This document shows positions 11,711-35,212 of a DNA stretch of 35,212 nucleotides, piece after piece. Each line of letters opens with the position of its first letter. Position 1 is the first letter of the stretch. The position numbers were made by a program, and so were the translations under genes. Source of the stretch: Bacteroidaceae bacterium (lineage in GTDB: Bacteria; Bacteroidota; Bacteroidia; Bacteroidales; Bacteroidaceae). The notes below the pieces were generated by a model. The model saw nothing but the letters and a program-made list of their open reading frames with translations. It was not told where the DNA came from and did no database searches. The DNA lies in contig CAVHNA010000003.1 in NCBI GenBank assembly GCA_963637205.1, positions 1-35,212 on the forward strand, in the 5' to 3' direction.

Positions 11711-13969
11711 TCATTGTATTGTCTTTAGGAACTCCTCCGCCTTTTGTATGGTGTCTTGCTTGCCTACGTCCAGTATGCGCAGTCCTGGCTGTATGTATCC
11801 GTATATGTTCTCCTTGTCACACACGCTGAGGTAGAAGTCTATGATGGAGAACTTGTCGGGGAAACCGTCGAAATAACGGAACAGCCTTGGATGCATGTAG
11901 TGGATGCCGGCAAAAGCCAGATGGCGGTATTTCGTCACGTCCAGCAGCGGATAGGGGCTCTTCACCTCACCGGTCTGCACGTTGGCCCATCCCACCAGGC
12001 GCATATCGTCGTCGAACAGCAGGTAACGGTTTGTCTGTCTCTCGGACACGAGCAGTGTGGCGGCCTTGCCTGTGGCGTATGCCGTGAAGGCTCTCAGGTC
12101 GGCGTTGCTCAGTATGTCCACGTTGTGTATCAGGAAACCGTCCTGCGCGTCGTGCAGCAGCGGCGCGGCGTGCTTCACGCCACCTCCTGTCTCCAGCAGT
12201 TCGGCGCGTTCGTCGGAGAACCATACGTTCATGTCCTTGGCGTGCTCGGCGCACCAGTCCTCTATCATGTCGGCGAAATGATGTACGTTCACCACCACGT
12301 CTCTGTAGCCCGACTCTTTTAGCTTCTCCAGCAGGTGCTGCAGCAGCGGCTTGCCTGCCACTGGCACGAGTGCCTTGGGCATGCTGTCTGTCAGTGGACG
12401 TAGCCTTGTGCCGAGTCCGGCTGCGAATATCATGCAGCGTGCCGCGGCGAAGGTTTGCGTGATGCCTTGTTCGCGGTGGCATACGTGTACCTCTATGCCG
12501 AACTTCCTGTGTATGTGCTCCGCCAGATGCTGTGCGCTGTACACGCTCCTGTGCTGTCCTCCGGTGCATCCGAAGGAGAACATGAGGTTGGTAAAGCCGC
12601 GCTGTATATATCGCTGTATGTGTGCGTCAGCCAGGTTGTACACGCTCTCCAGGAAGGTGAGTATCTCTCCGTCGTCCTCCAGGAAGCGTATCACCGGCTC
12701 GTCCAGACCTGTCATCTTCTTGTATGGCTCGTAGCGTCCGGGGTTGTGCGTGCTCCTGCAGTCAAAGACGTAACCTCCGCCGTTGCCGCTTTTGTCCTCG
12801 GGTATGCCTTTCTTGTAGGAGAAGCTGAAGATGCGCACTACCAGAGGCCCTTTGCCGTCGTAGCGACTGAACGTGGCGGGACCGTCGGAGGGATGTGCTG
12901 GATAGGGGTTGTACTCGGTGGTCTTGAATCCGTCCGCTCTCTCCACCGGCTTCTCGGGCTCGGGCTGGAACTGGGGCAACGCCACCATGGCGGAGAGTAC
13001 CTCGCGCAGGTAGGGATACGGACAGCCGTCGTCGTTGAGGAGCTCTCTCAGGTTGGCTATCGCTGGCGGTATGCTTTCCAGGAAGTGCTTCTTGCGTTCG
13101 AAGTATCCTCTGAAGCCGTAGGCTCCCAGCACTTGCAGCAGACGGAAGATGACGCATAGCCGCAGCCCTTGGCGGAACTCTTTCTCGTTCACCTCCATGT
13201 AGAACTTCAGGTTTTCCACATAGGTGCTTATGAGTTCAGTGCGTAGTGAGGCGGAGTATTTGGCGGAGGCTTGCCACAGGAAGCTTGCCACGTCGTACTG
13301 CACGGGTCCGCGCCTGCCGCCTTGGAAGTCTATGAAGTAGGGGTTGCCGTCTTGGTCGAGCATCACGTTGCGCGCTTGGAAGTCGCGGTACATGAACGTC
13401 TCTCCGGGTATGTTCACTATGTCCCTGGCCATCAACTTGAAGGCTGCTTCCAGTTTCAACTCGTGGAAGTCTATGCCTGTAGCTTTCAGGAAGCAGTACT
13501 TGAAGTAGTTGAGGTCGAACAGCACGTTCGTCTCGTCCAGGCTCTCCTGGGGGTAGCAGTTGGAGAAGTCGAGTCCTCTCGCTCCCTTCACCTGTATCTT
13601 GGGCAGTATGGCAATGGTGCGGTGCAGCAGGTCTTTCTCTTTCTGCGTATATCTGCCGCCGGAGTCCCTGCCGCCTTTCAGCGCGTCGTAGAGCGACAGG
13701 TCGCCGAGGTCGGTCTGCAGGTATCTGAGGCCGTCCTCCGACTGCGCCACCACCGTCGGCACCGGCAGGTGTCGCATTGCGAAGTGGTCCGCCAGGTATA
13801 TGAAGGCGTGGTTCTCGTCCCTGCTCGTCCCTATCACGCCTATCAGCGTGGTTCCGTCCGACCCTTGCAGACGGTAGTATTTCCGGTTGCTGCCGGCTCC
13901 GGGCAGTGGGTCGCACGAGACGATGTTGAGCTTGGTAGTTTCTCTGTATAGTTGTTTCAGTTGTTCCAT
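11711..13969 (-). CDS. Three-domain fusion: AmgK-like anomeric sugar kinase (APH fold), RapZ C-terminal-type domain, and MurU-like sugar-1-phosphate nucleotidyltransferase
   Basis: One uninterrupted 752-aa frame from the ATG at 13969 (MEQLKQLYRE...).
- aa 1-335 (nt 12965..13969): GAGSNRKYYR, catalytic MYRDFQARNVML and FIDFQG, as in AmgK/APH kinases.
- aa ~375-502 (nt 12464..12847): VRIFSFSYKKGIPED...YVFDCRSTHNPGRYEPYKKMTGLDEPVIRFLE...FGCTGGQHRSVYSAQHLAEHI. This is co-linear with the E. coli RapZ C-terminal domain (SFGFKYGIP..., DVRFLPNP, MTGLD.PV..FL, GCTGGKHRSV).
- aa ~512-752 (nt 11714..12436): MIFAAGLGTRLRPLTDSMPKALVPVAGKPLL, the NTP-transferase signature.
The 52-codon upstream extension in the ORF track overlaps the permease gene and is rejected. 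Confidence 0.85.
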   Translation of the reverse strand: MEQLKQLYRETTKLNIVSCDPLPGAGSNRKYYRLQGSDGTTLIGVIGTSRDENHAFIYLADHFAMRHLPVPTVVAQSEDGLRYLQTDLGDLSLYDALKGGRDSGGRYTQKEKDLLHRTIAILPKIQVKGARGLDFSNCYPQESLDETNVLFDLNYFKYCFLKATGIDFHELKLEAAFKLMARDIVNIPGETFMYRDFQARNVMLDQDGNPYFIDFQGGRRGPVQYDVASFLWQASAKYSASLRTELISTYVENLKFYMEVNEKEFRQGLRLCVIFRLLQVLGAYGFRGYFERKKHFLESIPPAIANLRELLNDDGCPYPYLREVLSAMVALPQFQPEPEKPVERADGFKTTEYNPYPAHPSDGPATFSRYDGKGPLVVRIFSFSYKKGIPEDKSGNGGGYVFDCRSTHNPGRYEPYKKMTGLDEPVIRFLEDDGEILTFLESVYNLADAHIQRYIQRGFTNLMFSFGCTGGQHRSVYSAQHLAEHIHRKFGIEVHVCHREQGITQTFAAARCMIFAAGLGTRLRPLTDSMPKALVPVAGKPLLQHLLEKLKESGYRDVVVNVHHFADMIEDWCAEHAKDMNVWFSDERAELLETGGGVKHAAPLLHDAQDGFLIHNVDILSNADLRAFTAYATGKAATLLVSERQTNRYLLFDDDMRLVGWANVQTGEVKSPYPLLDVTKYRHLAFAGIHYMHPRLFRYFDGFPDKFSIIDFYLSVCDKENIYGYIQPGLRILDVGKQDTIQKAEEFLKTIQ

Positions 13970-15156
13970 ATTTTCTTGATACGTGTGTAAATGGCTATGG
14001 CGTTGGCAGCTCCCACCGCCAGCAGCATCACCGTCCCTGTGCACAGCGCGGCTGACATGCCGCCTTCGTTCATGTTGGGGAACAGGTTCCACAGGGCTTC
14101 CATATACAGGCAGCGAACCTTCCATAGCAGCAGGGCGGCCAACAGGAAGACGGCGACGTTCACCACCAGGGAGATGGTCTGGTATGGCAGCGACACCTCA
14201 AACGGGGTGTAGCCTATCAGCATGAGGTTGCGTACCTTCTCCATGTTCTTCTGCAACAGCAGGAAGATGCTGAGCATCAGTATGTAGAGGGACAATACGC
14301 TGATGAGCAGGCCTATCGCCGCCACGGTCGTCGCCACTACCTTCAAGAAGTACGTGGTCCTGCCTTCGGACAACTTGTCGTCTTCCAACTCCAGACTGTG
14401 GCTCTCCATGTACCGCACTATGGCGTCGTCCGCCGGGTTGTTCACTTCCACTATCAGACGGTTGGGACTCTGCTTGGCGTCGGTGGCGAGCTCTGCGTTG
14501 CTCCATTCTATGAACGACATGGGCACCAGCACGGTGTTCAGCCTTGTGCTGAAACCCACTACCTTGCCTGCGAGACGTAGCTCTCTACCGTTGCCGTTCA
14601 ACCGTATGTCCAGGTTCACCGCGCTTGCCACTGACTCTGATATCTTGGGCAGCGACTGGCTGCTGGCGAAACCGAAGTTGTACAGCGAGAGGTACGACTT
14701 GGGCAGTATGATGGGCACGGTGTTGTCGCCAGGGTTGTACGTCCACTTGCTCAGGTCAGTGTCTATGTAGGAGTCGGGCACGCTCTCGAAGAACATGTCG
14801 GTGCCCATGTTCATCATGCCTCCCACTCCCACGCTGCAGTAGACCTTGTAGCCGCTGGCGGTGAACTTGCCCACCGAACGGCAGAACGGTTGTCCTTCCA
14901 GTTCCTTTATCTCTTCGTCGGAGAAGGAGGTGTTCTCGTCTCCCAACAGGCTGCTCACCGTAGACACCTGTTTGGAGACTATGATGTATTGCTTGCCTAC
15001 TATGGCGTCGTCGCCTTGGAAGAAGGGCAGCACGTCGCTGTATATCTGCACGCTCAGCATCACTATGAACATGCCTGTCAGACTGGCGAAGAAGAAGCCC
15101 GCCAACTGCCCTGCGCTGACGTGCCTGCGTAGCAGTTTCCACACTAATGCGTTCAT
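13957..15156 (-). CDS. ABC transporter permease, FtsX/MacB-type (1 TM, large extracytoplasmic domain, 3 TM)
   Basis: 399 aa. An N-terminal TM helix (FFFASLTGMFIVMLSV) is followed by a ~230-aa soluble region and three C-terminal TM helices. The ATG overlaps the upstream ATPase stop (ATGA). Confidence 0.8.
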   Translation of the reverse strand: MNALVWKLLRRHVSAGQLAGFFFASLTGMFIVMLSVQIYSDVLPFFQGDDAIVGKQYIIVSKQVSTVSSLLGDENTSFSDEEIKELEGQPFCRSVGKFTASGYKVYCSVGVGGMMNMGTDMFFESVPDSYIDTDLSKWTYNPGDNTVPIILPKSYLSLYNFGFASSQSLPKISESVASAVNLDIRLNGNGRELRLAGKVVGFSTRLNTVLVPMSFIEWSNAELATDAKQSPNRLIVEVNNPADDAIVRYMESHSLELEDDKLSEGRTTYFLKVVATTVAAIGLLISVLSLYILMLSIFLLLQKNMEKVRNLMLIGYTPFEVSLPYQTISLVVNVAVFLLAALLLWKVRCLYMEALWNLFPNMNEGGMSAALCTGTVMLLAVGAANAIAIYTRIKKIWNN

Positions 15157-25218: not shown

Positions 25219-26163
25219 ATGAAACAGACCAAATTGCTTATCATAGGCAGCGGGCCGGCAGGACTCACCGCGGCCATATATGCCGGCAGGGCGGGTCTCT
25301 CGCCTTTGCTCCTGGAGGGCCTGCAGCCGGGCGGACAGCTTACCACCACCACCGACGTGGAGAACTTCCCGGGCTTCCCCGAGGGCGTGGACGCCAACGA
25401 GCTGATGGACAACATGCGCAGCCAGGCGCAACGCTTCGGCACGGAGATTATGACTGCCATAGCGGAGAAGGCGGACCTCAATGTCTACCCTTACCGTGTG
25501 TGGCTCGACAGCGGCGAGGAGGTGGTGGCGCAGTCCATCATCATAGCCACGGGTGCCAAGGCGAGGTACCTCGGACTGGAGGACGAACGTAAATACATGG
25601 GACAGGGTGTCAGTGCCTGCGCCACGTGCGACGGTTTCTTCTACCGCGGCAAGGTGGTGGCTGTAGTCGGCGGCGGCGACACGGCGTGCGCCGAGGCTTC
25701 CTATCTGGCTGGACTGGCCTCCAAGGTCTACCTCATCGTGCGCAAACCGTTCCTCCGCGCGAGTGCCGTCATGGCGCAGCGTGTCACGGCGGACAGCCGC
25801 ATAGAGGTTCTCTTCGAGACGGAGACGGTGGGTCTCTTCGGCGAGGGGGGCGTGCAGGGCGCACATCTTGTACATAGGAAAGGTACGGCGGACGAACGTA
25901 CGTACGACCTGCCCATAGACGGCTTTTTCCTGGCCATTGGGCACAGCCCGTGCAGCGGACTCTTCCGTCCGTGGCTGAAGACGGATGCCGAGGGTTACAT
26001 CATTACCGAGGGTGGCACGCCGCGCACCGGGGTGGCGGGTGTCTTCGCCGCCGGCGACGTGGCGGACGCTCGTTACAGGCAGGCTGTCATAGCCGCCGCC
26101 TCGGGAGCAAAGGCTGCCATGGAGGCGGAGAAGTTCTTGGCTGACAAAGGTAGCGCAATATGA
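25219..26163 (+). CDS. trxB: Thioredoxin-disulfide reductase
   Basis: GSGPAG FAD motif, redox-active CATC (SACATCDG), GGGDTA NADPH motif and C-terminal GDVAD. The ATG is at 25219; the track start at 25213 is a TTG. Confidence 0.95.
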   Translation: MKQTKLLIIGSGPAGLTAAIYAGRAGLSPLLLEGLQPGGQLTTTTDVENFPGFPEGVDANELMDNMRSQAQRFGTEIMTAIAEKADLNVYPYRVWLDSGEEVVAQSIIIATGAKARYLGLEDERKYMGQGVSACATCDGFFYRGKVVAVVGGGDTACAEASYLAGLASKVYLIVRKPFLRASAVMAQRVTADSRIEVLFETETVGLFGEGGVQGAHLVHRKGTADERTYDLPIDGFFLAIGHSPCSGLFRPWLKTDAEGYIITEGGTPRTGVAGVFAAGDVADARYRQAVIAAASGAKAAMEAEKFLADKGSAI

Positions 26164-27656
26164 CGAAACTGGAACTTTACCGACTCATCAAGCGCAACGC
26201 TTCTCTCAAGGACGAGCGCCATCCTATGCTGGAGAAGAACAGGTTCATGCGCCTGCTCATGGTCTTCATGTGGCTCTACTACGCCGCGCTGCTCCTCATC
26301 ATGGGTGTCGCCCTGCCTGTGGGCATGGAGGACGAGTACAACGGGGTGGCGGCGTTCCATGTGCTCGACGGCTTCTTCCCTATCCTTCTCATCACAGACT
26401 TCTGGGTACGCTTCGCGTTGCAGGAGACGCCTGCCATGCAGTGCCGCCAGTATGCGCTGCTGCCGGTGCGCCGTTCGTTCTTGCTCCATGTGTACCTTGT
26501 CCGGTCGGGCTTCAGCGTGGGCAACATGTTCTGGTTCTTCTTCCTCGTGCCCTTCGGACTGTTGTCCATAGTGGCGCACTTCGGGTGGTTGCCTTTCTTC
26601 GGGTGGCTGCTAGGGTGGTGGCTGATGTGCGTGGCGGACGGCTTCATATATCTCATCGTCCGTACGCTGTGCTCCAAACGGTTGGCGTGGGTTTTCTTGC
26701 CGCTGGCGGTGCACGGTGCGGTGCTGGCTCTTATGTTCGTGCCGGACCACAACCCTCTGGACATGCCATGCACCAAATGGCTCTACTCCATGACGCTGTG
26801 GCATCCGCTGCCCTTCCTCGTCATGGCCGCCGTCATTGCGCTGCTCTACCGCGCCAACTTCCTCTTGCAGGGTCGCGCGGTCTACAACGAGGTGGCGAAG
26901 AAGGAGGAGGTGGAGGTGAAGAACGCTTCGCAGATGGCTTTCCTCGACCGTTACGGCAAGGTGGGCGAGTACCTGAAGCTGGAGCTGAAGTTGCGACTGC
27001 GCAACAAGTCGCTGCGTACCGGCTTCTACGTGGTGCTGGGCGCCATGCTGCTGCTGAGCGGGATACTGGACTTCTCGGGCTTGTACGACTCTACCTTCAT
27101 GAAGTCTTTCATCTGCCTCTACGACTATATCGTGCCGGGCATGACAATGCTGGTGACGGTGATGTGCCACGAGGGTAACTACATGGACGGGCTTATGTCG
27201 CGCCGTGAGAGTATATACGACCTCCTCAAGGCCAAATATTACTTCAACGTGCTGCTGCTCGTCATACCCTCCATACTGCTCATACCGTCCATGGCGCTGG
27301 GCAAGATTGGAGTGATGATGAACTTCGGATACCTCTTCCTCACCGCAGGGGTGCTCTACCCCATCATGTTCCAGATGGCGGCCTACAACAAGGAGTCGCT
27401 GCCTCTCAACGCCAAGATTACCGACAAGCAGGGCAACACGGCGCAGAACATATTCTCCGTGGCGGCTCTCTTCGTGCCCATCGGCTTGGAGCGGCTCTCG
27501 GTGCTACTTCTGGGCGACACATGGGGCTATGTGCCTCTCATCGTGATGGGTGCCGTCGGGATGGCTACGTACCGTGTCTGGCTGCGCAGTGTCTACAGGC
27601 GGTTCATGGTGCGCCGCCATGTCAACATGGAGGGATTCAGGGCTTCGCGCGACTGA
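26160..27656 (+). CDS. Polytopic membrane protein (probably DUF5687 family), likely the membrane partner of the downstream ABC ATPase
   Basis: 498 aa with about 10-12 hydrophobic helices. ATGA overlap with the trxB stop. An ABC ATPase follows 37 nt downstream. Family name from memory only. Confidence 0.65.
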   Translation: MTKLELYRLIKRNASLKDERHPMLEKNRFMRLLMVFMWLYYAALLLIMGVALPVGMEDEYNGVAAFHVLDGFFPILLITDFWVRFALQETPAMQCRQYALLPVRRSFLLHVYLVRSGFSVGNMFWFFFLVPFGLLSIVAHFGWLPFFGWLLGWWLMCVADGFIYLIVRTLCSKRLAWVFLPLAVHGAVLALMFVPDHNPLDMPCTKWLYSMTLWHPLPFLVMAAVIALLYRANFLLQGRAVYNEVAKKEEVEVKNASQMAFLDRYGKVGEYLKLELKLRLRNKSLRTGFYVVLGAMLLLSGILDFSGLYDSTFMKSFICLYDYIVPGMTMLVTVMCHEGNYMDGLMSRRESIYDLLKAKYYFNVLLLVIPSILLIPSMALGKIGVMMNFGYLFLTAGVLYPIMFQMAAYNKESLPLNAKITDKQGNTAQNIFSVAALFVPIGLERLSVLLLGDTWGYVPLIVMGAVGMATYRVWLRSVYRRFMVRRHVNMEGFRASRD

Positions 27657-27693
27657 GACCTCGGGTTTGTATAACGATTTAACATAGAAGAAA

Positions 27694-28425
27694 ATGGATA
27701 TAACGATAAAGGACCTCACCAAACGCTTCGGCGAGAAGGTGGCAGTGGACATACCGGACTTCCACATCGCCGGCGGCGAGATGCTGGGACTGGTGGGCAA
27801 CAACGGTGCCGGCAAGAGCACTCTCTTCCGGTTGATTCTGGACCTCATAAAGGCTGACTCGGGGTCGGTGGTGATGACGGGCGAATACATGGGCGCACAG
27901 CGCAGTGTGGACGTGTCGCGCACGGAGGAGTGGAAGGACTGGACTGGGGCTTTCGTCGACGAGGGCTTCCTCATCGACTACCTCACGCCGGACGAGTACT
28001 TCCGCTTCGTGGCCAAGATCAGCGGACTCGACGACGAGGCATTGCAGGAGACGCTGCGTAGCTTCGAGGTCTTCATGGCGGGCGAGGTGACGGGACAGCA
28101 GAAGCTCATACGCAACCTCTCGGCAGGCAACAAGCAGAAGGTGGGCATCGTGGCGGCTATGCTGCTACGCCCACAGGTGCTCATCCTGGACGAGCCTTTC
28201 AACTTCCTCGACCCTTCTTCGCAGGGGGCTATCAAACACTTGCTTACGGAGTACAACCGTACTACCGGAGCTACCGTCCTGGTCTCCAGCCACAACTTGC
28301 AGCATACGGTGGACATCTGTCCGCGCATTGCGTTGCTGGAGCACGGCGTTATCATACAGGACATCGACAACGGCGAGGGACAGGCCAAGGCTCTGCTGGA
28401 GGACTACTTCCACATCGAGGCGTGA
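27694..28425 (+). CDS. ABC transporter ATP-binding protein (ABC-2/exporter type)
   Basis: Walker A GNNGAGKST, signature LSAGNKQK, Walker B LILDEP, H-loop VSSHN. Confidence 0.9.
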   Translation: MDITIKDLTKRFGEKVAVDIPDFHIAGGEMLGLVGNNGAGKSTLFRLILDLIKADSGSVVMTGEYMGAQRSVDVSRTEEWKDWTGAFVDEGFLIDYLTPDEYFRFVAKISGLDDEALQETLRSFEVFMAGEVTGQQKLIRNLSAGNKQKVGIVAAMLLRPQVLILDEPFNFLDPSSQGAIKHLLTEYNRTTGATVLVSSHNLQHTVDICPRIALLEHGVIIQDIDNGEGQAKALLEDYFHIEA

Positions 28426-28460
28426 CGCGCCTTCGTTTTCTCTGACAAACTGACACGGAT

Positions 28461-29246
28461 ATGCAAGACAGACAACTCAACAGGCGGCAGTACTTCCGCG
28501 AGCTGGCGGACACCAGCGGACATTATTTCATCCCTTATATCAACCGTTTCATACGCGTCGACTCGTCGCTCCGCATACTGGAGATAGGGTGCGGCGACGG
28601 CGGCAACCTGCTGCCTTTCGCTCGCATGGGTTGCAAGGTGACGGGGTGCGACATGGCGGAGTGCCGTGTCTCTGACGCGCGCCGCTTCTTCGACGAGGAA
28701 TGCGCCATCGGTACGTTCATAGCCTCCGACGTCTTCAAGCTCAAGGACTTGGAGGGTCGCTTCGACCTCATCATCTGCCACGACGTGATAGAGCACATAC
28801 CCGACAAGGCGGAGTTCATGCGCAAGTGCGTCACACTGCTGCGCCCCGGCGGCTCCCTCTTCATGTCGTTCCCTGCCTGGCAGATGCCCTTCGGCGGCCA
28901 CCAGCAGATATGCCGCAGCTGTCTCGTCTCCCACCTGCCGTGGATACACCTCCTGCCCGCGTCACTCTACGCATGGGCACTGCGGAAAGCCGGCGAGAAC
29001 GAAGGCTGCGTCCGCGAGCTCCTTGACATAAAAGCCACCAAGTGCCCCATAGAACTCTTCGAGAAGTCCGTCCCCTGCGACTTCCGCATAGTAGACCGCA
29101 CCCCCTGGCTCATCAACCCCCACTACCGGGTCAAGTTCGGCCTAACCCCCATCCGCCTATGGCCACCCCTAGGCAAGATCCCCTACCTCCGCAACTTCCT
29201 GACCACCTCCGCCTTCTACTTCCTGCAGCTGAGAACTGAGTGCTGA
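28461..29246 (+). CDS. Class I SAM-dependent methyltransferase
   Basis: Motif I ILEIGCGDGGN, an acidic residue after beta-2 (GCDM), CHDVIEHI and LLRPGGSLF. Confidence 0.85.
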   Translation: MQDRQLNRRQYFRELADTSGHYFIPYINRFIRVDSSLRILEIGCGDGGNLLPFARMGCKVTGCDMAECRVSDARRFFDEECAIGTFIASDVFKLKDLEGRFDLIICHDVIEHIPDKAEFMRKCVTLLRPGGSLFMSFPAWQMPFGGHQQICRSCLVSHLPWIHLLPASLYAWALRKAGENEGCVRELLDIKATKCPIELFEKSVPCDFRIVDRTPWLINPHYRVKFGLTPIRLWPPLGKIPYLRNFLTTSAFYFLQLRTEC

Positions 29247-29277
29247 GAGCTGAGTGCTGAGAACTGAGAACTGAGAA
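29229..29277. repeat. Heptanucleotide tandem repeat (CTGAGNN) x 7
   Basis: Units are CTGAGAA CTGAGTG CTGAGAG CTGAGTG CTGAGAA CTGAGAA CTGAGAA. The third unit contains the methyltransferase stop codon (TGA at 29244-29246). Confidence 0.9.
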
Positions 29278-29305
29278 TAGTAGGCGCGTTTGCGCCAAAC
29301 GCGCC
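29278..29305. repeat. GC-hairpin module, copy 1 (TAGTAGGCGCGTTTGCGCC...)
   Basis: GGCGCGTTTG-CGC-CAAACGCGCC is a perfect 10-bp stem (29283-29305). The first 19 nt (29278-29296) recur exactly at 29475-29493. Confidence 0.85.
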
Positions 29306-29323
29306 CCGCAAGCAGCCCATCCC

Positions 29324-29401
29324 TTCTAGAAAATCTCGGTCTTCTAGAGTACGGTGCGCCAAGGCGCACCTGCTAGAACAACTAGAGCATCTAGAAAATC
29401 T
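29324..29401. repeat. CTAG-rich palindromic module, copy A
   Basis: It contains five CTAG tetramers and two TCTAGAAAATCT direct repeats (29325-29336 and 29390-29401). These are placed symmetrically around the perfect 18-nt palindrome GGTGCGCCAAGGCGCACC (29353-29370). The 34-nt core at 29344-29377 is identical to 32695-32728. Confidence 0.9.
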
Positions 29402-29429
29402 AACCACCTCTCGCTCATAGGTCGCGTTT

Positions 29430-29461
29430 GGCGCAAACGCTCCTCCTATGGGCTGCGCCTC
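29430..29461. repeat. 32-nt perfect direct repeat, copy 1 (GGCGCAAACGCTCCTCCTATGGGCTGCGCCTC)
   Basis: Identical to 29853-29884. It is preceded by a hairpin-forming GCGTTTG-GCG-CAAACGC. Confidence 0.9.
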
Positions 29462-29479
29462 AAAGAGCTGCTCCTAGTA

Positions 29480-29499
29480 GGCGCGTTTGCGCCGTTTTT
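29480..29499 (+). terminator. Terminator-like hairpin with a T-tract (inside GC-hairpin module copy 2, 29475-29493)
   Basis: GGCGC-GTTT-GCGCC followed by GTTTTT. The stem is short (5 bp), but this is the only hairpin plus T-tract downstream of the trxB-to-methyltransferase gene string. Confidence 0.4.
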
Positions 29500-29604
29500 C
29501 GCTGTCTTTCTCTCCCCATCATTATCCCCCTTTATTATAATCTCACACAAGCACGTATAACACCGTCATAACGTGTACTATAACGATGTATAAATGTGGG
29601 CCCT

Positions 29605-29612
29605 TACGTTTG
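29605..29612 (+). promoter_or_regulatory. Candidate -7 box (TACGTTTG) abutting the 22-bp repeat array
   Basis: Exact TAnnTTTG match 3 nt upstream of the array. No clear -33 TTTG. It lies about 400 nt upstream of the first pilus-locus start codon. Confidence 0.3.
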
Positions 29613-29614
29613 CT

Positions 29615-29768
29615 GGCAATTGTCAGCAAGGTGAATGGCAATTGTCAACAAGATGAATGGCAATTGCCAGCAACTGTTACGGCAACTGTCAGCAACTGTT
29701 ACGGCAATTGCCATAACATTGGATGGCAATTGTCAGAAACTGTTACGACAACTGTCGTAAAATGTCAT
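29615..29768. repeat. Tandem array of 7 x 22 bp, each unit with a (near-)palindromic core GGCAATTGYCA
   Basis: The units read exactly in phase:
1. GGCAATTGTCAGCAAGGTGAAT
2. GGCAATTGTCAACAAGATGAAT
3. GGCAATTGCCAGCAACTGTTAC
4. GGCAACTGTCAGCAACTGTTAC
5. GGCAATTGCCATAACATTGGAT
6. GGCAATTGTCAGAAACTGTTAC
7. GACAACTGTCGTAAAATGTCAT
There are no unique spacers, so this is not a CRISPR array. Confidence 0.95.
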
Positions 29769-29852
29769 CACCTAGTTCCTTACATCATATCAACGTACGT
29801 CTTCAACCTGTCAAGTAGTACGTGTCGAGTCGTGATACTGTGGAGCCGAGTA

Positions 29853-29884
29853 GGCGCAAACGCTCCTCCTATGGGCTGCGCCTC
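29853..29884. repeat. 32-nt perfect direct repeat, copy 2
   Basis: Identical to 29430-29461. Its first 21 nt are also an 18/21 inverted match to 29473-29493. Confidence 0.9.
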
Positions 29885-29972
29885 TGCCCCCTTCTCTTGA
29901 CATAAATCAATAACTTTTTCTTCCTTTAATAAAAATTAAGTCGTTACTTTATGCTGTATGGCAGGATTTTCG

Positions 29973-29980
29973 TAATTTTG
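29973..29980 (+). promoter_or_regulatory. Bacteroidota -7 box (TAATTTTG) proximal to the pilus operon
   Basis: Exact TAnnTTTG match 37 nt upstream of the ATG at 30017. It forms one arm of the 8+8 inverted repeat TAATTTTG-CA-CAAAATTA (29973-29990). Confidence 0.5.
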
Positions 29981-30016
29981 CACAAAATTATGGTAAAAGG
30001 AACCGCAACGATACAT

Positions 30017-31438
30017 ATGAGACGTACTGCCTTACATAATATAACCATGGCAGTCCTTCTGTTTCTGTTTGGAGGACAGGGACTTGGTGCTTACGCCCAG
30101 CGTCCCGGTACTGTGGACAGTGCCTTCGTTGCCAACTCGCGCCCCATCATCTTCGTCGTCAACAAAACCAGCGTCAGCGCGGACGACAGGCACTGGCTGG
30201 CGGACTCTCTGCGTACCGCTCTCAGGGCGATAGGACCTACCGGTATCATCGTGGGACGAGCCACGGCCTCACCCGAAGGACCGCTGGAGGGCAACAAACG
30301 GTTGGCGGAGGGCCGACGCAGGACGGTAGACGGTATACTGCGACGGTTGGGCTACGACACCGACCGCATTCACTACGACGTGGTGGCGGAGGACTACGAC
30401 CTCCTGCGTACCCTTATGAGCAACAACCGCGATGCGGCAAGCGACGTGGTTGACTCTCTGTATTTTGCGCACGCGCACGAGGGCAAGAGCCTGAAGGCGG
30501 CTCTGCAGGCTGAGGACGGCGGCGCGCTGTGGCAGCGTCTGCTCCGCGAATACTTCCCTTCTCTGCGTGCCGTGCGTATCATGGCGGTGGACGGACGACT
30601 GCTGGTGGACGGCTACCTGATGCCCGACCTGCAGCAGAAGGACTTCCCACAGATTGACATCAAGGACTTGGCGAAGACGGAGAACGTGACTGACTATGAC
30701 CGCGACTACAAGCCGCTTACGGAATACCCCCGGTACGGCGTTGCCGACGAGGGCGCACGCATACCGCGCCGCGAGCTGCTGTCGGTGAAGACGAACCTGC
30801 TGTTTGACTTCGCCTATATGCCGGGCTACGACCGCTTCTGCCCCATACCTAACGTGGCGATAGAGTACTATCCTCTGCACGGACACTTCACCTACGGCGC
30901 GTCGTTCGACTGCCCGTGGTGGCAGCACTACCACGAGTATAAGTTCTTCCAGCTGCGCAACTACCAGGTGGAGGCGCGCTACTACTTCAAGAGCGGCGAC
31001 GTGGACAAGGTGGGCTACGGCAAGGGAGCCGCCTTTCGCGGCCTCTACGTGCAGGCGTACGGACACGCCGGCCTTTACAGCATCTGTTTCGACGAGGACC
31101 GCGGATGGGAAGGCGAAGGCGTGGGTGCCGGCGTGGGAGTGGGCTACGTGCTCCCGCTCAGCAAGAAAGGACACTGGAGACTGGAGTTCGGCTTGCAGGC
31201 CGGCGTCTTCTGGACCAAATACGACCCTTACCAGTACGAGAGCGTCATATACCCCGACAAGAGGGACGACCTCTACTACTACAAGTTCAACAATTTCGGC
31301 AACTTCTTCACCCGCAGGCAGCATCGCCTCACGTGGCTGGGCCCCACCCGTGTGGGCATCACGCTTAGCTACGACCTGCTCTACAGGAAAAGGATGAAGA
31401 AGGGGGCGAGCTTCAGAAGTTGGGAGGCTGTGAGATGA
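30017..31438 (+). CDS. Outer-membrane protein: OmpA-like N-terminal segment plus a DUF3575-type beta-barrel (typical first gene of Bacteroidales type V pilus loci)
   Basis: Start chosen at MRRTALHNITMAVLLFLFGGQGLGAYAQ (signal peptide); the earlier ATGs at 29951 and 29990 lie upstream of or within the -7 box. RATASPEGPLEGNKRLAEGRRRTV resembles the OmpA-C core. The C-terminal half (LSVKTNLLFDFAYMPG..., aromatic/Gly-rich alternating strands) fits DUF3575. Family names from memory only. Confidence 0.7.
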   Translation: MRRTALHNITMAVLLFLFGGQGLGAYAQRPGTVDSAFVANSRPIIFVVNKTSVSADDRHWLADSLRTALRAIGPTGIIVGRATASPEGPLEGNKRLAEGRRRTVDGILRRLGYDTDRIHYDVVAEDYDLLRTLMSNNRDAASDVVDSLYFAHAHEGKSLKAALQAEDGGALWQRLLREYFPSLRAVRIMAVDGRLLVDGYLMPDLQQKDFPQIDIKDLAKTENVTDYDRDYKPLTEYPRYGVADEGARIPRRELLSVKTNLLFDFAYMPGYDRFCPIPNVAIEYYPLHGHFTYGASFDCPWWQHYHEYKFFQLRNYQVEARYYFKSGDVDKVGYGKGAAFRGLYVQAYGHAGLYSICFDEDRGWEGEGVGAGVGVGYVLPLSKKGHWRLEFGLQAGVFWTKYDPYQYESVIYPDKRDDLYYYKFNNFGNFFTRRQHRLTWLGPTRVGITLSYDLLYRKRMKKGASFRSWEAVR

Positions 31439-32598
31439 CGGACATACTGCGTAAATGGTGCATGGCGCTCCTGCCGCTCGCCGTGGCGACGGTGATACTG
31501 ACAGGATGCGAACGACAGCCGATACTGCACCTCGACTACTATGGCGACATAGACACGAAGCTGCCGCTCGTGGAGCTGCGACTCGACGTGTTCTGGGACT
31601 ACAACGCGGAGCTGGAAGGACAGTACAACTGGCGCGACGAGTGGTACTACGGATGGGACGAGCGTGACAAGGAACTGTTCGGCGAGATCGGCTACACGGA
31701 GCCTACGGCGTTCCAGATACGCCGCTACTACACCGGCAGGTCGCCTTATGCTGCGCATACCACGGTGCAGTCCGACCTTATCAACAGCTACGTCTACTCG
31801 GCGAAGTTCGACTGGGGATTCTGGGACTTGCTGGCGTGGAACGAGATCAACACGCCAGACGGTGTGCAGAGCCTTCGCTTCGACGAGCAGTCCACGCTGG
31901 AGTACGTGACGGCGTACACTGGACAGACCATGAACGCGGCGCGCTACCAGGCTCCCAAATACACGAGGTCGTTCTACCAGCCCGAGCAGCTGTTCAGCGC
32001 ATACAGCCAGGCTCTGGAGATCAACGAGAACCTCGACGGCTTCGAATACGACGCGGAACGCAACGTGTGGGTGAAACAGCTGGAGATGATGCTGTACCCC
32101 GTCACGTATATATATCTCACGCAGGTGATACTGCACCACAACAACGGTAAGATCACTGACGTGGACGGTAACGCCAATCTCTCGGGTATGGCGCGTAGCG
32201 TGAACGTGAACACCGCAGTGGCGGGTTCCGACCCTATCACCGTCCACTACTACGTGAGGTTCAAGAAAGGATGCGACATGAAGGGCGAGAGTGTCGACAT
32301 CGCAGGAGGACGACTCACCACCTTCGGTATGTGCAACGTCAACGGCAGTCGCGCCACGGCAGCGGTTGACGACGGCATACGTCACTACATGGACGTGAAC
32401 ATGCAGTTCAACAACGGTATGGACTCCACGTTCGTGTTCGATGTCACCGACCAGGTGCGCAAGCGTTACAGAGGAGGTGTCCTCACCGTAGAGCTTGACG
32501 CCGACACCATCACAGTCCCCAAACGCAAAGGCGGCTCCGGCTTCGATGCCGTAGTAAAGGACTTCGAGGACGGCGGAACCCACGAGTTCGAGATGTAA
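31435..32598 (+). CDS. Lipoprotein, probably a FimB/Mfa2-like or DUF5119-type pilus anchor/accessory subunit
   Basis: ATGA overlap with the upstream stop. Lipobox LTGC (Cys25). The size (387 aa) and position between the DUF3575 gene and a fimbrillin gene fit. No catalytic motifs. Assignment is by context. Confidence 0.5.
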   Translation: MTDILRKWCMALLPLAVATVILTGCERQPILHLDYYGDIDTKLPLVELRLDVFWDYNAELEGQYNWRDEWYYGWDERDKELFGEIGYTEPTAFQIRRYYTGRSPYAAHTTVQSDLINSYVYSAKFDWGFWDLLAWNEINTPDGVQSLRFDEQSTLEYVTAYTGQTMNAARYQAPKYTRSFYQPEQLFSAYSQALEINENLDGFEYDAERNVWVKQLEMMLYPVTYIYLTQVILHHNNGKITDVDGNANLSGMARSVNVNTAVAGSDPITVHYYVRFKKGCDMKGESVDIAGGRLTTFGMCNVNGSRATAAVDDGIRHYMDVNMQFNNGMDSTFVFDVTDQVRKRYRGGVLTVELDADTITVPKRKGGSGFDAVVKDFEDGGTHEFEM

Positions 32599-32675
32599 GG
32601 AGGAAAAGATATGAAAGTAGGAGATGCGGCCAGCAAGAGGAAAGTAGGAGGCGCAGATATCCAAGCTGCGCCCAC

Positions 32676-32740
32676 TCTAGAGCCTCTAGAAAACCTAGAG
32701 TACGGTGCGCCAAGGCGCACCTGCTAGAGTAACTAGAGCC
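32676..32740. repeat. CTAG-rich palindromic module, copy B
   Basis: Five CTAG tetramers around the same perfect palindrome GGTGCGCCAAGGCGCACC (32704-32721). The core at 32695-32728 is identical to 29344-29377. Confidence 0.9.
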
Positions 32741-32762
32741 GCTAAAGCCCCCAAGCGAGGAG

Positions 32763-32910
32763 GTAGGAGGCGCATTGAGCCGCAGGCGAGAAATAGGAGG
32801 CGATTTCCATGAACTAAAAGTCGGCGGCCGAAGGGAAAGCCAAATGCGCCCACGCAAGAGGAAAGGCCCAAGCGAGCCCAGGGTTGCGTTTCACGGAAAC
32901 GCTCCTACTA
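32763..32910. repeat. ~150-bp intergenic repeat, copy 1 (GTAGGAGGCGCA ... GCGTTTCACGGAAACGCTCCTACTA)
   Basis: Aligns base-for-base with 35063-35212, with only about ten substitutions or 1-nt indels by eye. It ends in the hairpin GCGTTTC-ACG-GAAACGC. Confidence 0.9.
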
Positions 32911-33089
32911 GAGGCCCTACGGGCTGAAAGCCCAGCTGCTCCTAGCCCAGGGCATCGCCCTGGGTAACATAAGACGCACACGCCTGCGCCCTGTAAGGGC
33001 AGCTACACAAACGAACGAGGGGGTCGCCCCTACTAGAACATATACATTATATAATATATAAAAAGGTAAAACATAAAAATACAGAGATT

Positions 33090-35051
33090 ATGAAAAAGAA
33101 GGATTTTCTCCTTGCCGCTACAATGGGCATTGCCCTTGCCGGCTGTTCTGATGACTTGACGGGAATCACCTCAAGTCCGACGACCACTGAGGAGGCTCCG
33201 GAGGCTATCATGTTCGGCAATATCGCCAGCAAGATGACACGTGCCACCGGGGGCGAAGCAGCTGCCAATCTCCTTGGCAAAAAGATTTATTTCTACGGCG
33301 AAAAGGTGACTGGCACTGGCGCCAACGCTACCCACACACCTATCTTCGACAACTACTCGCTTGAGTATGACGGTAATGCCGGTTCCACCGCTACCAACGT
33401 CGCAGGATGGGAGTATGTGGGCAAGACTTCCAAGAAGGGTGCTGCACAGGACACCAAGTACTGGGACTACAACTCCAACGAGTACAACTACGTGGCTGTC
33501 TCAGCTAACGCTCTTCCTGATGACAAAGACCTTATCAAAGGTGCCGCTACTACGGACAGTTTGAAGATTAGCGTGCCCAACGCTTCTTCCGTGGACGGTC
33601 TCTACGTCGCTGACCGTATCACCAAGACACCTACCGAGTACAAGCAGACCGTCACGTTCAATTTCCGTCGCCTCGGCGCACGTATGCGTATCGGTTTCTA
33701 CGAGACAGTACCTGGCTACGCCATCAAAGACCTGATATTCTACTACGTAGGTGCACCCTCTGGTAGCAAGACGCTCGGTGTCGGCGGTGCCTTCCCCGTG
33801 TCCGGTAAGTACAATGTCAGCTTCGGCGATGACAACAAGGCTACGGTTAAGTTCAACGGCGGTAGCAACAAGATGGAATGGTCAAGCCAGTTCGGCGAAC
33901 TCGACTACACATCCGCTTTGTCAAAGGCTAACGTTTCCGGAAAGCAATACATCGACGAGAACGGTGCCGCTACTGCTACTGAAGTGAAGAAGTTCCTCGG
34001 CACAAACGCCACGGAGGCTACCTTCGCCAAGGGCTCTTACACCATTGACGGAGTAGAGAATACAACGTCTGACTACAAGCCCATTCTCCCCAACGAGAAC
34101 AACTCCCTGAAGATGCAGCTCCGCGTGGACTACACCCTTGTAGCTCTCGACGGTAGCGGCGACGAGATAAAAGTACGCGACGCATACGTCAGCGTACCCG
34201 TGGAATACCTGAAGTGGAAACCCAACTACGCCTACACCTACCTCTTCAAGATCTCCGACAAGAGCAACGGTTACACAGGCAAGGACACAGGCACAGTAGA
34301 CCCCGACACTGGTGGCCGCGAACCAGACCCGGACAACGGCGGTGGCGATAATGACCCCACTGACCAGAACAAAGATGGTAACGTAGATCCTCCATACGTT
34401 CCAGACCCGGATTATGTTGATCCTGAAACAGGTGAGAAGCCTGATCCATACATCCCCGACCCGGATAATCCAACCGATAGTATACCTAACCCCGACGTTC
34501 CTCTGGTTCCGAACCCTGACTATCCAGGCAACGACCCGAAGAACCCAGGCGACCCTGTTGCTCCTGACGGCGACCAAGGTGACCCGTCCAACCCAGTACC
34601 GACACCAAAAGACCCGGATGACCCAACTAAGGATGACCCTGAGAATCCCGCAGGTCTCTTCCCCATCACCTTCGACGCATGCGTAGAGGAGGTTACGGAG
34701 AACACCCAGGAGACAGTCTCCACAGTGGCTACGCCGAGCATAACAGCAATGTCAGCCACAAGCGATGTGACGACAAACGACGAGTATATGGTAGGCGAAG
34801 ACATCGTCCTCACCGTTCAGGACGGTGTGACAGCAAGCAAGTGGGAATACATCTACGAAGGCACGACAGCCATCTCTGAGAAGGCCGCAGAGCAGAAGTA
34901 CGGTAAAGCTACTACTTGGACTTCCCTCGGTACAGATGCAAAGGCCACCCTCACACCTAGCAAGGGTGCCGGCTACTACATAGTACGAGTAAACGTAGGT
35001 ACAGCCACAAAGCCTAACTACGGCTACAAAGTAATAAAGGTAGTAGCCTGA
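33090..35051 (+). CDS. Fimbrillin-family (FimA/Mfa1-class, type V pilin) lipoprotein with a C-terminal Asp/Pro-rich linker and an extra domain
   Basis: Lipobox LAGC (Cys19). An Arg at position 51 (SKMTR|ATGG) sits where FimA/Mfa1 propeptides are cleaved. VTFNFRRLGARMRIGFYE and surrounding beta-rich sequence are typical of fimbrillin N- and C-domains. aa 399-520 is low-complexity D/P/N/G. aa 521-653 is an additional beta-rich domain. Confidence 0.7.
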   Translation: MKKKDFLLAATMGIALAGCSDDLTGITSSPTTTEEAPEAIMFGNIASKMTRATGGEAAANLLGKKIYFYGEKVTGTGANATHTPIFDNYSLEYDGNAGSTATNVAGWEYVGKTSKKGAAQDTKYWDYNSNEYNYVAVSANALPDDKDLIKGAATTDSLKISVPNASSVDGLYVADRITKTPTEYKQTVTFNFRRLGARMRIGFYETVPGYAIKDLIFYYVGAPSGSKTLGVGGAFPVSGKYNVSFGDDNKATVKFNGGSNKMEWSSQFGELDYTSALSKANVSGKQYIDENGAATATEVKKFLGTNATEATFAKGSYTIDGVENTTSDYKPILPNENNSLKMQLRVDYTLVALDGSGDEIKVRDAYVSVPVEYLKWKPNYAYTYLFKISDKSNGYTGKDTGTVDPDTGGREPDPDNGGGDNDPTDQNKDGNVDPPYVPDPDYVDPETGEKPDPYIPDPDNPTDSIPNPDVPLVPNPDYPGNDPKNPGDPVAPDGDQGDPSNPVPTPKDPDDPTKDDPENPAGLFPITFDACVEEVTENTQETVSTVATPSITAMSATSDVTTNDEYMVGEDIVLTVQDGVTASKWEYIYEGTTAISEKAAEQKYGKATTWTSLGTDAKATLTPSKGAGYYIVRVNVGTATKPNYGYKVIKVVA

Positions 35052-35062
35052 CAGCAGGCTGC

Positions 35063-35212
35063 GTAGGAGGCGCATTGAGCCTCAGGCGAGAAGGTAGGAG
35101 GCGCATTTCCGTGAACTAAAAGTCGGCGGCCGAAGGGAAAGCCAAATGCGCCCACGCAAGAGGAAAGGCCCCAAGCCGCTCAGGGTCGCGTTTCACGGAA
35201 ACGCTCCTACTA
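35063..35212. repeat. ~150-bp intergenic repeat, copy 2 (runs to the window edge)
   Basis: See 32763-32910. It starts 12 nt after the fimbrillin stop codon. Confidence 0.9.

Follow-up and report, generated by a model that had tools for sequence, protein, structure and literature searches.

Two direct repeats beside a pilin-like gene of a Bacteroidaceae bacterium are probably dispersed palindromic repeats of the REP kind, with a nested 30-nt loop module

The described systems closest to the repeats considered here are built from repetitive extragenic palindromic (REP) sequences. REP doublets forming hairpins (REPINs) were defined, together with the tyrosine transposases associated with REPs (RAYTs), in Pseudomonas fluorescens SBW25 (Bertels and Rainey, 2011; PMC3116915). 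REPs tagged with GTAG were surveyed in 2013, GTAG repeats being recorded in Proteobacteria, Cyanobacteria, Chloroflexi and the PVC (Planctomycetes, Verrucomicrobia, Chlamydiae) group, whereas Bacteroidetes had CGTC repeats alone (Di Nocera et al., 2013; PMC3733652), and TnpAREP subclasses have been described in Bacteroidetes (Quentin et al., 2018; PMC6006769). The present analysis concerns a 35,212-nt stretch of DNA from a Bacteroidaceae bacterium (contig CAVHNA010000003.1), the whole of which is called the window, and two direct repeats in it, copy 1 (32763-32910) and copy 2 (35063-35212), which enclose a pilin-like gene. With a probability of about 0.75, the two copies are dispersed palindromic intergenic repeats of the REP kind, arranged in a compound like a REPIN or a bacterial interspersed mosaic element (BIME), and are not the boundaries of a pilin cassette.

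Aligned globally, copy 1 (148 nt) and copy 2 (150 nt) are identical in 141 of 151 columns (93.4%); the others are six mismatches and four gap columns, and the longest stretch without a difference is 57 nt. The pair was recovered at E 4e-56 when the window was compared with itself by BLAST, which returned only two other repeats, both shorter and intergenic (29344-29388/32695-32739 and 29430-29461/29853-29884). This agrees with the initial annotation, which had noted near-identical repeats in the same orientation with about ten differences, the second starting 12 nt after the stop codon of the enclosed gene and running to the edge of the window. The left edge of both copies is sharp, identity beginning at GTAGGAGG and the DNA further left being unrelated; the right edge is undefinable, as copy 2 reaches the last base of the window. 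Each copy opens with a half unit, followed by a forward hairpin and, across a purine-rich spacer of about 33 nt, a second hairpin of the same type in inverted orientation; a forward unit is made up of an unpaired (G/A)TAG head, GA and then the hairpin. The parts are as follows.

32763-32910, plus strand: copy 1 of the 150-nt compound repeat, 165 nt past the stop of a DUF5119-like gene, with the AT-rich region that precedes the pilin-like gene downstream of it
32763-32792, plus strand: half unit of copy 1, a GTAG head and GGCGCATT, then the linker GAGCCGCAGGCGAGAA
32793-32850, plus strand: forward hairpin of copy 1, ATAGGAGGCG-ATTTCCATGAA, the module and ATGCGCC, with head and 5' arm degenerate relative to copy 2
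32814-32843, plus strand: loop module of copy 1, 30 nt, CTAAAAGTCGGCGGCCGAAGGGAAAGCCAA, directly after the GAA of its host hairpin
32851-32885, plus strand: purine-rich spacer of copy 1, CACGCAAGAGGAAAGGCCCAAGCGAGCCCAGGGTT, akin to that of the doublets in the related locus L084 (GCAAAGAGGAAA...CAAGCGAGCGGAG)
32886-32910, minus strand: inverted hairpin of copy 1, reading TAGTAGGAGCGTTTCCGTGAAACGC on the minus strand; the same hairpin type, here without the module
35063-35212, plus strand: copy 2 of the compound repeat, beginning 12 nt past the stop of the pilin-like gene (35049-35051) and cut by the end of the window and contig
35063-35093, plus strand: half unit of copy 2, GTAGGAGGCGCATT plus linker
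35094-35152, plus strand: forward hairpin of copy 2, GTAGGAGGCGCATTTCCGTGAA (GTAG-GA-GGCGCATTTCCGTGAA), the 30-nt module and ATGCGCC, with closing stem GGCGCATTT/AAATGCGCC
35116-35145, plus strand: loop module of copy 2, the same 30-nt module
35153-35187, plus strand: purine-rich spacer of copy 2, equivalent to that of copy 1
35188-35212, minus strand: inverted hairpin of copy 2, again TAGTAGGAGCGTTTCCGTGAAACGC on the minus strand, making 21-nt inverted termini with 35095-35115

In copy 2, the segments 35095-35115 and 35192-35212 are 86% complementary, lie 76 nt apart and are paired with each other in the minimum-free-energy fold; the inner 118 nt of this copy are bounded by these 21-nt inverted termini. 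A miniature transposable element with inverted repeats (MITE) that derives from a DDE-type insertion sequence would have a target-site duplication besides such termini; none is evident at copy 1, which has GCGAGGAG as its left flank and GAGGCCCT as its right flank, and copy 2 is cut before its right flank. The internal complementarity reported in the initial annotation exists, both as the pairing of GGCGCATT with AATGCGCC at 32843-32850 and as the hairpin GCGTTTC-ACG-GAAACGC at 32886-32902, except that the position given for GGCGCATT was one base off and is 32769-32776. The left arm in copy 1 has a 1-base deletion and a G-to-A change with no compensating change in the right arm, and copy 1 looks like the more decayed of the two. 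One hairpin type is present in the window in two forms, a module-filled forward form (GCGCATTTCCGTGAA, 30 nt, then ATGCGCC) and an empty inverted form (GAGCGTTTCCGTGAA joined directly to ACGCGAC). As the module ends in AA, the closing stem of the forward hairpin is regenerated around it.

The compound resembles a REPIN in having two inverted palindromic units around a spacer, a length of about 100-120 nt, the capacity to fold into one long hairpin and an extragenic location. The spacer is also less conserved than the hairpin arms, doublets are accompanied by singlets and clusters, and genes of the RAYT type, flanked by such hairpins, are present in the same bacterial group. It differs from REPINs in its host, which belongs to the Bacteroidales and not the Proteobacteria, in the extra half unit on its left and in the 30-nt loop insert of the forward arm, which makes the two arms unequal. 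With the GTAG REPs and the BIMEs of Escherichia coli it shares an unpaired GTAG-type tetranucleotide at one end of a 20-40 nt palindrome, a tag that is common to different palindromes, and units that lie close together in opposite orientation, mostly after coding regions. Unlike in the GTAG REPs, the head of the window type is often TAGTAGG or (G/A)TAGGAG, and purine-rich linkers such as CAAGCGAGGAG recur between units. The Correia elements of Neisseria and the ERIC (enterobacterial repetitive intergenic consensus) elements of enterobacteria are similar in being intergenic inverted repeats of about 100-150 nt that are often co-transcribed with neighbouring genes and that have size variants arising from internal insertions at fixed sites, but neither is related in sequence to the window unit. 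Correia elements make a TA target duplication, and none is seen for the window unit.

The two copies are part of a larger population of hairpins in the window. About a dozen (G/A/T)TAG-headed hairpins are confined to three large intergenic spaces, all of them within 29247-29950, 32599-33089 or after 35051 (by position, at 29277-29493, at 29843-29884, at 32644-33035 and after 35063), and every unit is therefore extragenic. Palindromes forming stem-loops of 20-40 nt include GCGTTTC-ACG-GAAACGC, GGCGC-GTTT-GCGCC, GGCGCAG-N9-CTGCGCC and others. A (G/A/T)TAG tag stands before every unit of the window, and also before unrelated palindromes in contig L002 and in the loci L084, L087 and L089, whilst the string TAGGAG[GC]CG occurs five times in the window against 0.8 expected. 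In the compound itself, two inverted REP units and their spacer are predicted to fold as one hairpin.

Further units of this kind are present in orthologous pilus loci (L083, L084 and L086-L089), which were collected through homologs of the 653-aa pilin-like protein. In L084, where the pilin ortholog has 66% identity and synteny is full, a doublet lies at the orthologous site and starts from within the stop codon (TAGTAGGTGCATTTCTGTGAAATGCAC, a spacer GCAAAGAGGAAA...CAAGCGAGCGGAG, then GCATTTCACAGAAATGCTGCTACTA); it has the layout seen in the window and a related spacer, is without the 30-nt insert, and occurs a second time 3.9 kb downstream. Other GTAG hairpins begin in the stop codon of the pilin ortholog in L083 (82% identity) and L086 (79% identity). 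In L087 and L089, successive genes of the locus are followed by a repeat belonging to that genome; in L087 it is 84 nt long and includes a GTAG hairpin, and in L089 it is an unrelated element of about 90 nt with inverted repeats. GTAG hairpins also lie outside the pilus genes, at 2879-3133 in L087 and at 902, 4150 and 5282 in L089. The GTAG head stands before different palindromes in L083, L086, L084, L087, L089 and the assembled genome CAVHDN01 (contigs L001-L007), and by a crude test the hairpins of most of these loci are preceded more often by GTAG than by a permuted head.

When genomes of species representatives were scanned with a 25-mer from the conserved centre of the repeat, which includes an AAA prefix and is specific to the module subtype of the window so that counts are lower bounds, at least one genome (CAVHDN01) was found with at least eight copies on seven contigs. 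The intergenic spaces of this genome are packed with TAGTAGG-headed hairpins, and these adjoin SusC/SusD and glycoside-hydrolase genes. CAVHDN01 is labelled 'Flexilinea sp.', yet it encodes SusC/SusD, GH43 and a rhamnogalacturonan lyase and has repeats of the Bacteroidales type; the presence of these genes on its contigs points to a Bacteroidota genome or a mixed bin. In a low-coverage metagenome (X1), the one public run that has any words in common with the window (5%, against 26000-29300) and one without the pilus genes, fragments matching the 32886-32910 hairpin were found at a depth of 12.6, against about 2 for the unique flank. At least five small contigs of this run match the 35188-35212 hairpin, with four different left flanks recorded and depths of 4-18. 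Taken together, the related loci, CAVHDN01 and X1 suggest a dispersed repeat family and not a sequence specific to the pilus locus.

It had been proposed that the copies bracket the pilin gene as a cassette, being kept as recombination substrates for deletion, amplification or exchange of the pilin, with on/off switching or antigenic variation as the outcome. The direct orientation of the copies and their 57-nt exact run would suit this, as would the paralogous pilin-like genes that follow the ortholog in related loci, the occurrence of a same-genome repeat after successive locus genes in L084, L087 and L089, and the difference in gene order, by a toxin-antitoxin pair, that L083 and L087 show between the DUF5119-like gene and the pilin ortholog. 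Two of the points behind the proposal hold: a repeat unit does follow successive genes of the pilus locus, with copies past both the DUF5119-like and the pilin-like gene, and further paralogous pilins do lie downstream in related loci, in L084 for instance as proteins of 629, 573 and 665 aa with 29-34% identity. The units, however, are also found in non-pilus gene contexts in related genomes, and they fill all of the large intergenic spaces of the window. The nearest ortholog, L083, retains the gene without copy 1; about 17 nt stand there in place of window 32738-32919, whilst the rest of the upstream spacer is common to both, so that copy 1 is present in the window and absent from L083, either as a lineage-specific gain or through loss in the nearest relative. 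In addition, the repeats found in the bracketing positions of L087 and L089 show no sequence relation to those of the window, which means that there is no conserved recombination site. Pilus switching in Bacteroidales, as far as is known, works by inversion of promoters through site-specific recombinases, which also counts against a cassette. One such inversion is described in PMC12940148. A switching cassette is thus unlikely, and this part of the initial annotation is not retained.

Local duplication would be another way of arriving at two similar copies, either by tandem duplication of the pilin gene with its downstream spacer or by gene conversion between spacers, with no transposition. 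Tandem pilin-like paralogs in relatives and the two near-identical doublets in the single locus of L084 are compatible with this, and the two copies do have the spacer and the extra half unit in common, beyond the hairpins. The DUF5119-like gene before copy 1 is, however, not a paralog of the gene before copy 2, the DNA on the left side of the two copies shows no relation until the GTAG head is reached, and L083 retains the rest of the spacer without the unit, all of which makes a local origin improbable.

The end of copy 2 is also the end of the contig, and the terminal copy might be suspected of having arisen by a wrong join or by the collapse of a repeat. With 10 differing positions between the copies, neither is a duplicate read-through of the other, and in orthologous loci from other samples the pilin-like gene is likewise followed directly by hairpin repeats. 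Contig breaks within such repeats are the rule in CAVHDN01, where five of the seven contigs end in the element. An assembly artefact is therefore very hard to credit. A protein encoded in the window is on record from a contig with a length of exactly 35212 nt, and the window is thus probably a whole contig that broke inside the repeat. No public sequencing run matched window 32600-35212 or a 163-mer, and amongst public assemblies there was no exact match for the pilin-like protein or for the methyltransferase encoded in the window, with the ABC ATPase leading only to a 2.4-kb contig.

The position of the hairpins relative to stop codons bears on a further explanation, in which the unit is a cis-acting terminator, 3'-end stabiliser or processing site that is repeated by selection at 3' ends and not by mobility. 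Hairpin repeats lie at the stop of the pilin ortholog or no more than 12 nt from it in the window, L083, L086 and L084, and in L089 the unrelated inverted-repeat element is found about 5 nt past the stop; in L087 the GTAG hairpins come only about 95 nt downstream of the stop, after a GTGAAGA-type tandem repeat. Both copies in the window are oriented like the genes, and in E. coli REP clusters stabilise upstream messengers, which would favour such a role. Against it, there is no T run after the hairpins on the plus strand, and the changes in the left arm of copy 1 are uncompensated in the right arm. The orientation of the loop module relative to flanking genes is also mixed, about 30 being the same and 37 opposite. 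An Rfam search of window 28000-35212 at E up to 1 gave no match in either copy, the only match nearby being to Acido-Lenti-1 (28 bits, threshold 37) at 32920-32964 on the minus strand, outside the repeat. The alternative offered in the initial annotation, a conserved 3' untranslated region or small RNA, thus finds no support in Rfam or in module orientation; the stop-codon position of the hairpins, however, is kept in four related loci and would be compatible with a role at the 3' end of the RNA. An RNA element as the cause of the repetition is possible and has a modest chance of being right.

A dispersed REP-kind family remains the preferred reading, and several observations weigh against it. 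The fold of the whole unit is hardly better than that of shuffled sequence, with z-scores of -1.2 (copy 1) and -2.5 (copy 2) and a range to -2.6, and the 150-nt unit showed neither a target-site rule nor an excision product. The repeats of the window occur only in or beside the pilus locus, and the pilus locus of four related genomes has an own-genome repeat after successive genes, which could be locus-specific. As the other 29 kb of the window have no large intergenic space, the evidence for dispersal comes from related genomes. Finally, the RAYT genes that were found are tied to a hairpin type, GGATTTGCAATCC, that is absent from the window, and none was found adjoining the GTAG hairpin type of the window.

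In a REP-kind family, the doublets would be spread via single-stranded DNA by a REP-associated tyrosine (HUH-Y1) transposase that may be encoded once elsewhere in the genome, and would settle in the spaces past stop codons. Those past the stop of the pilin-like gene may, more tentatively, have been retained as 3'-end stem-loops of the transcript. Recombination between the copies would be physically possible but incidental; going by the requirements of RecA in E. coli, the 57-nt exact run would permit rare homologous deletion of 2.3 kb.

A protein of this enzyme family, of 181 aa, is encoded on contig L015 and passes the NCBIfam model REP_Tyr_transpos (102 bits, cut-off 80) and also matches Pfam Y1_Tnp. 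Its gene lies between hairpin arrays, with a filled hairpin upstream (CTGGCGGATTGCAA, the module, then TCCGCCAG) and its empty twin CTGGCGGATTGCAAATCCGCCAG downstream. The protein family has 4488 homologs at E up to 1e-10, several of which are named RayT or come from assembled genomes of Bacteroidaceae or Prevotella, and other members of the family have inverted hairpins of the same type on both sides. Many proteins of the family (P0121-P0240) are encoded on contigs of only 0.6-2 kb, as would be expected if flanking hairpin arrays break short-read assemblies. A second gene of the Y1 type lies within the orthologous pilus locus of L087 and L088, scoring 40.6 bits against the IS200 model, below the cut-off of 55. 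It adjoins a GCCCTGAAAGGGC/CCCAGGGCAACGCCCTGGG composite that is also found at window 32920-33004.

The loop module is more widespread than the compound that carries it in the window. Its 22-mer core, GTCGGCGGCCGAAGGGAAAGCC, was found on 74 metagenome contigs, nearly always in intergenic DNA, and on seven contigs of the assembled genome CAVHDN01. The module takes one of two forms, of 34 nt (AACGTCGAAGAG-core) or 30 nt, and the stems of the hairpins that host it differ yet remain complementary; one pair position is G-C in 10 cases, C-G in seven, U-A in two and A-U in one. Searching the fetched DNA for empty sites with exact anchors gave an empty hairpin with the same flanks for 32 of the 61 distinct filled variants, the difference always being exactly 34 or 30 nt. 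Precise insertion or deletion was thus seen in at least eight different host hairpins, the module always following GAA and ending in CCAA. In one filled and empty orthologous pair, L033 and L044, BLAST aligned 722 columns of which 681 are identical, the only gap being the 34-nt module (GGGCTGAA, the module and AAGCCT against GGGCTGTAAGCCT), and identity is about 99% over 688 nt of flanks, which suggests that gain or loss of the module takes place in one piece and within a short time.

A small hairpin is possible within the module itself, GGC-GG-CC(GAAG)GG-AAA-GCC, and two diverged module copies have G5 to A together with C21 to T, a compensatory change from G-C to A-T. The module has no match in Rfam, and no description or counterpart of it was found in the literature. 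Domain IV of the signal recognition particle RNA, the kink-turn, the hammerhead, twister and domain 5 of group II introns were considered by eye as identities for the module, and none fits. Its behaviour recalls the 'peel and paste' transposition of the IS200/IS605 family by the Y1 enzyme TnpA, in the recognition of hairpins, in seamless gain and loss without long target duplications, in insertion beside a short specific sequence (after GAA, with CCAA at the end) and in the presence of Y1-type genes beside the repeats. Unlike members of that family, the module has 30-34 nt, one small hairpin and no gene, which is far below the size of any described member. Variants of ERIC with internal insertions are perhaps the nearest counterpart of a nested module of this kind. 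It is tentatively proposed, with the odds against it, that the module is itself a mobile 'nano-element' that enters and leaves the single-stranded loops of REP-type hairpins and is moved in trans by a Y1 (RAYT-like) enzyme.

The enclosed gene, its neighbours and the remaining hairpin units of the window are as follows.

33090-35051, plus strand: pilin-like gene, encoding a 653-aa lipoprotein with a modelled N-terminal type V pilin fold, a Pro/Asp-rich linker and a C-terminal beta domain
29951-32598, plus strand: upstream genes for a DUF3575 protein (29951-31438) and a DUF5119-like protein (31420-32598), syntenic in L084, L087 and L089
32644-32673, plus strand: GTAG-headed hairpin GTAGGAGGCGCAGATATCCAAGCTGCGCCC, in the same intergenic space as copy 1 and conserved in L083 at 130-183
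29277-29493, no strand assigned: cluster of GTAG-type hairpins after the methyltransferase gene, with a forward unit at 29278, an inverted unit at 29420-29449 and a forward unit at 29475 followed by a T run
29843-29884, no strand assigned: GTAGGCGCAAACGCTCCTCCTAT unit, part of a 32-nt exact repeat of 29430-29461
32920-33035, no strand assigned: second repeat family beside copy 1, with GGGCTGAAAGCCC (a host hairpin without the module), CCCAGGGCATCGCCCTGGG, GCCCTGTAAGGGC and TAGTAGGGGCGACCCC, the last as an inverted unit

The 653-aa protein begins with a lipoprotein signal peptide (MKKKDFLLAATMGIALAGC) and gave no sequence-family match in Pfam, NCBIfam or the PDB, whether searched as a single sequence or as a profile. 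An AlphaFold2 model built with 30 homologs has a mean pLDDT (predicted local distance difference test) of 72, and Foldseek placed it closest to 4qb7 (E 1e-8), followed by 4gpv, 3up6, 3ufi, 4h40, 3t2l and Mfa4 (5dhm), which are fimbrial and 'cell adhesion' proteins of Bacteroidales. The model indicates that the protein folds as a type V pilin, and the lipoprotein signal, the predicted pilin fold and the DUF3575 and DUF5119 neighbours are those of a type V pilin of the FimA/Mfa kind. The fold matches and the DUF3575 and DUF5119-like genes upstream make the earlier label of fimbrillin a fair one. A long Pro/Asp-rich linker is encoded by 34300-34660, with a 54-nt periodicity at 34391-34523 and low model confidence in this region; a separate beta domain follows it at the C-terminus, and homologs of about 545 aa are without part of the linker region.

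Some further features of the locus vary between relatives. A toxin-antitoxin pair with a PIN domain lies between the DUF5119-like gene and the pilin ortholog in L083 (372-1120), L087 (9167-9855) and L088 (965-1653); no such pair is at that site in the window or in L084, which has a PIN pair further downstream. After a pilin paralog, a hairpin resembling the T-arm and acceptor of a transfer RNA (GG(C/G)GGGGTTCGACTCCCC...) is found in L084 at about 8505-8535, in L087 at about 14660-14695 and in L089 at about 14780-14810. These hairpins were considered as transfer RNA genes and rejected, as ARAGORN finds no transfer RNA in the window, L084, L087 or L089.

The composite of GGGCTGAAAGCCC, CCCAGGGCATCGCCCTGGG and GCCCTGTAAGGGC is widespread, being found at window 32920-33004, at 12238-12500 and 15700-15810 in L087 and in many of the contigs L009-L082. 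In L087 it is directly upstream of the Y1 transposase-like gene within the pilus locus, and in other genomes its first hairpin hosts the 34-nt module. A 69-nt repeat with 81% identity is present at 29325-29393 and 32676-32744 of the window and also at 1278-1344 in the orthologous locus L083, and is made up of the palindrome GGTGCGCCAAGGCGCACC and surrounding CTAGAG/CTAGAA motifs.

In the AT-rich space upstream of the DUF3575 gene, 29614-29751 is a tandem array of 5.6 copies of a 22-nt unit with the consensus TGGCAATTGTCAGCAAGATGAA. It is flanked by inverted REP-like ends (29277-29306/29843-29872) and by a 32-nt exact direct repeat (29430-29461 and 29853-29884). This layout recalls the BrickBuilt element of Porphyromonas gingivalis, a 23-nt minisatellite inside a MITE (PMC4596501), and the array could be one for binding of a regulator, or a promoter-bearing element. 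Purine-rich tandem repeats followed by a TAGTAGG-headed hairpin recur at window 29227-29296, where they span the stop codon of the methyltransferase open reading frame, at 8977-9060 in L087 and at 4035-4199 in L089. The layout recurs whilst the sequences differ, the tandem units being GCTGAGAACTGAGT in the window, of the GTGAAGA type in L087 and of the ATATGGAA type in L089.

In view of these findings, the pilus locus of this bacterium is not to be annotated as a pilin switching cassette, and its repeats are better regarded as intergenic hairpins of an ordinary sort, selfish or semi-domesticated. Bacteroidales from gut-type metagenomes appear to be rich in GTAG-headed REP/REPIN families. Such hairpin repeats break short-read assemblies, which matters for binning and for the reading of pilus and polysaccharide-utilisation loci. 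With own-genome hairpin repeats past successive stops of the pilus locus in four related genomes, type V pilus operons become suitable for testing the old idea that REPs tune operon expression. What most deserves to be followed up is the loop module, a discrete unit that is gained and lost seamlessly in many hairpins. If it is indeed mobile, no smaller mobile DNA unit would have been described in bacteria; it would be a parasite living on another parasite, and would extend the lower size limit of transposable DNA and offer a simple substrate for the action of Y1 enzymes on hairpin loops.

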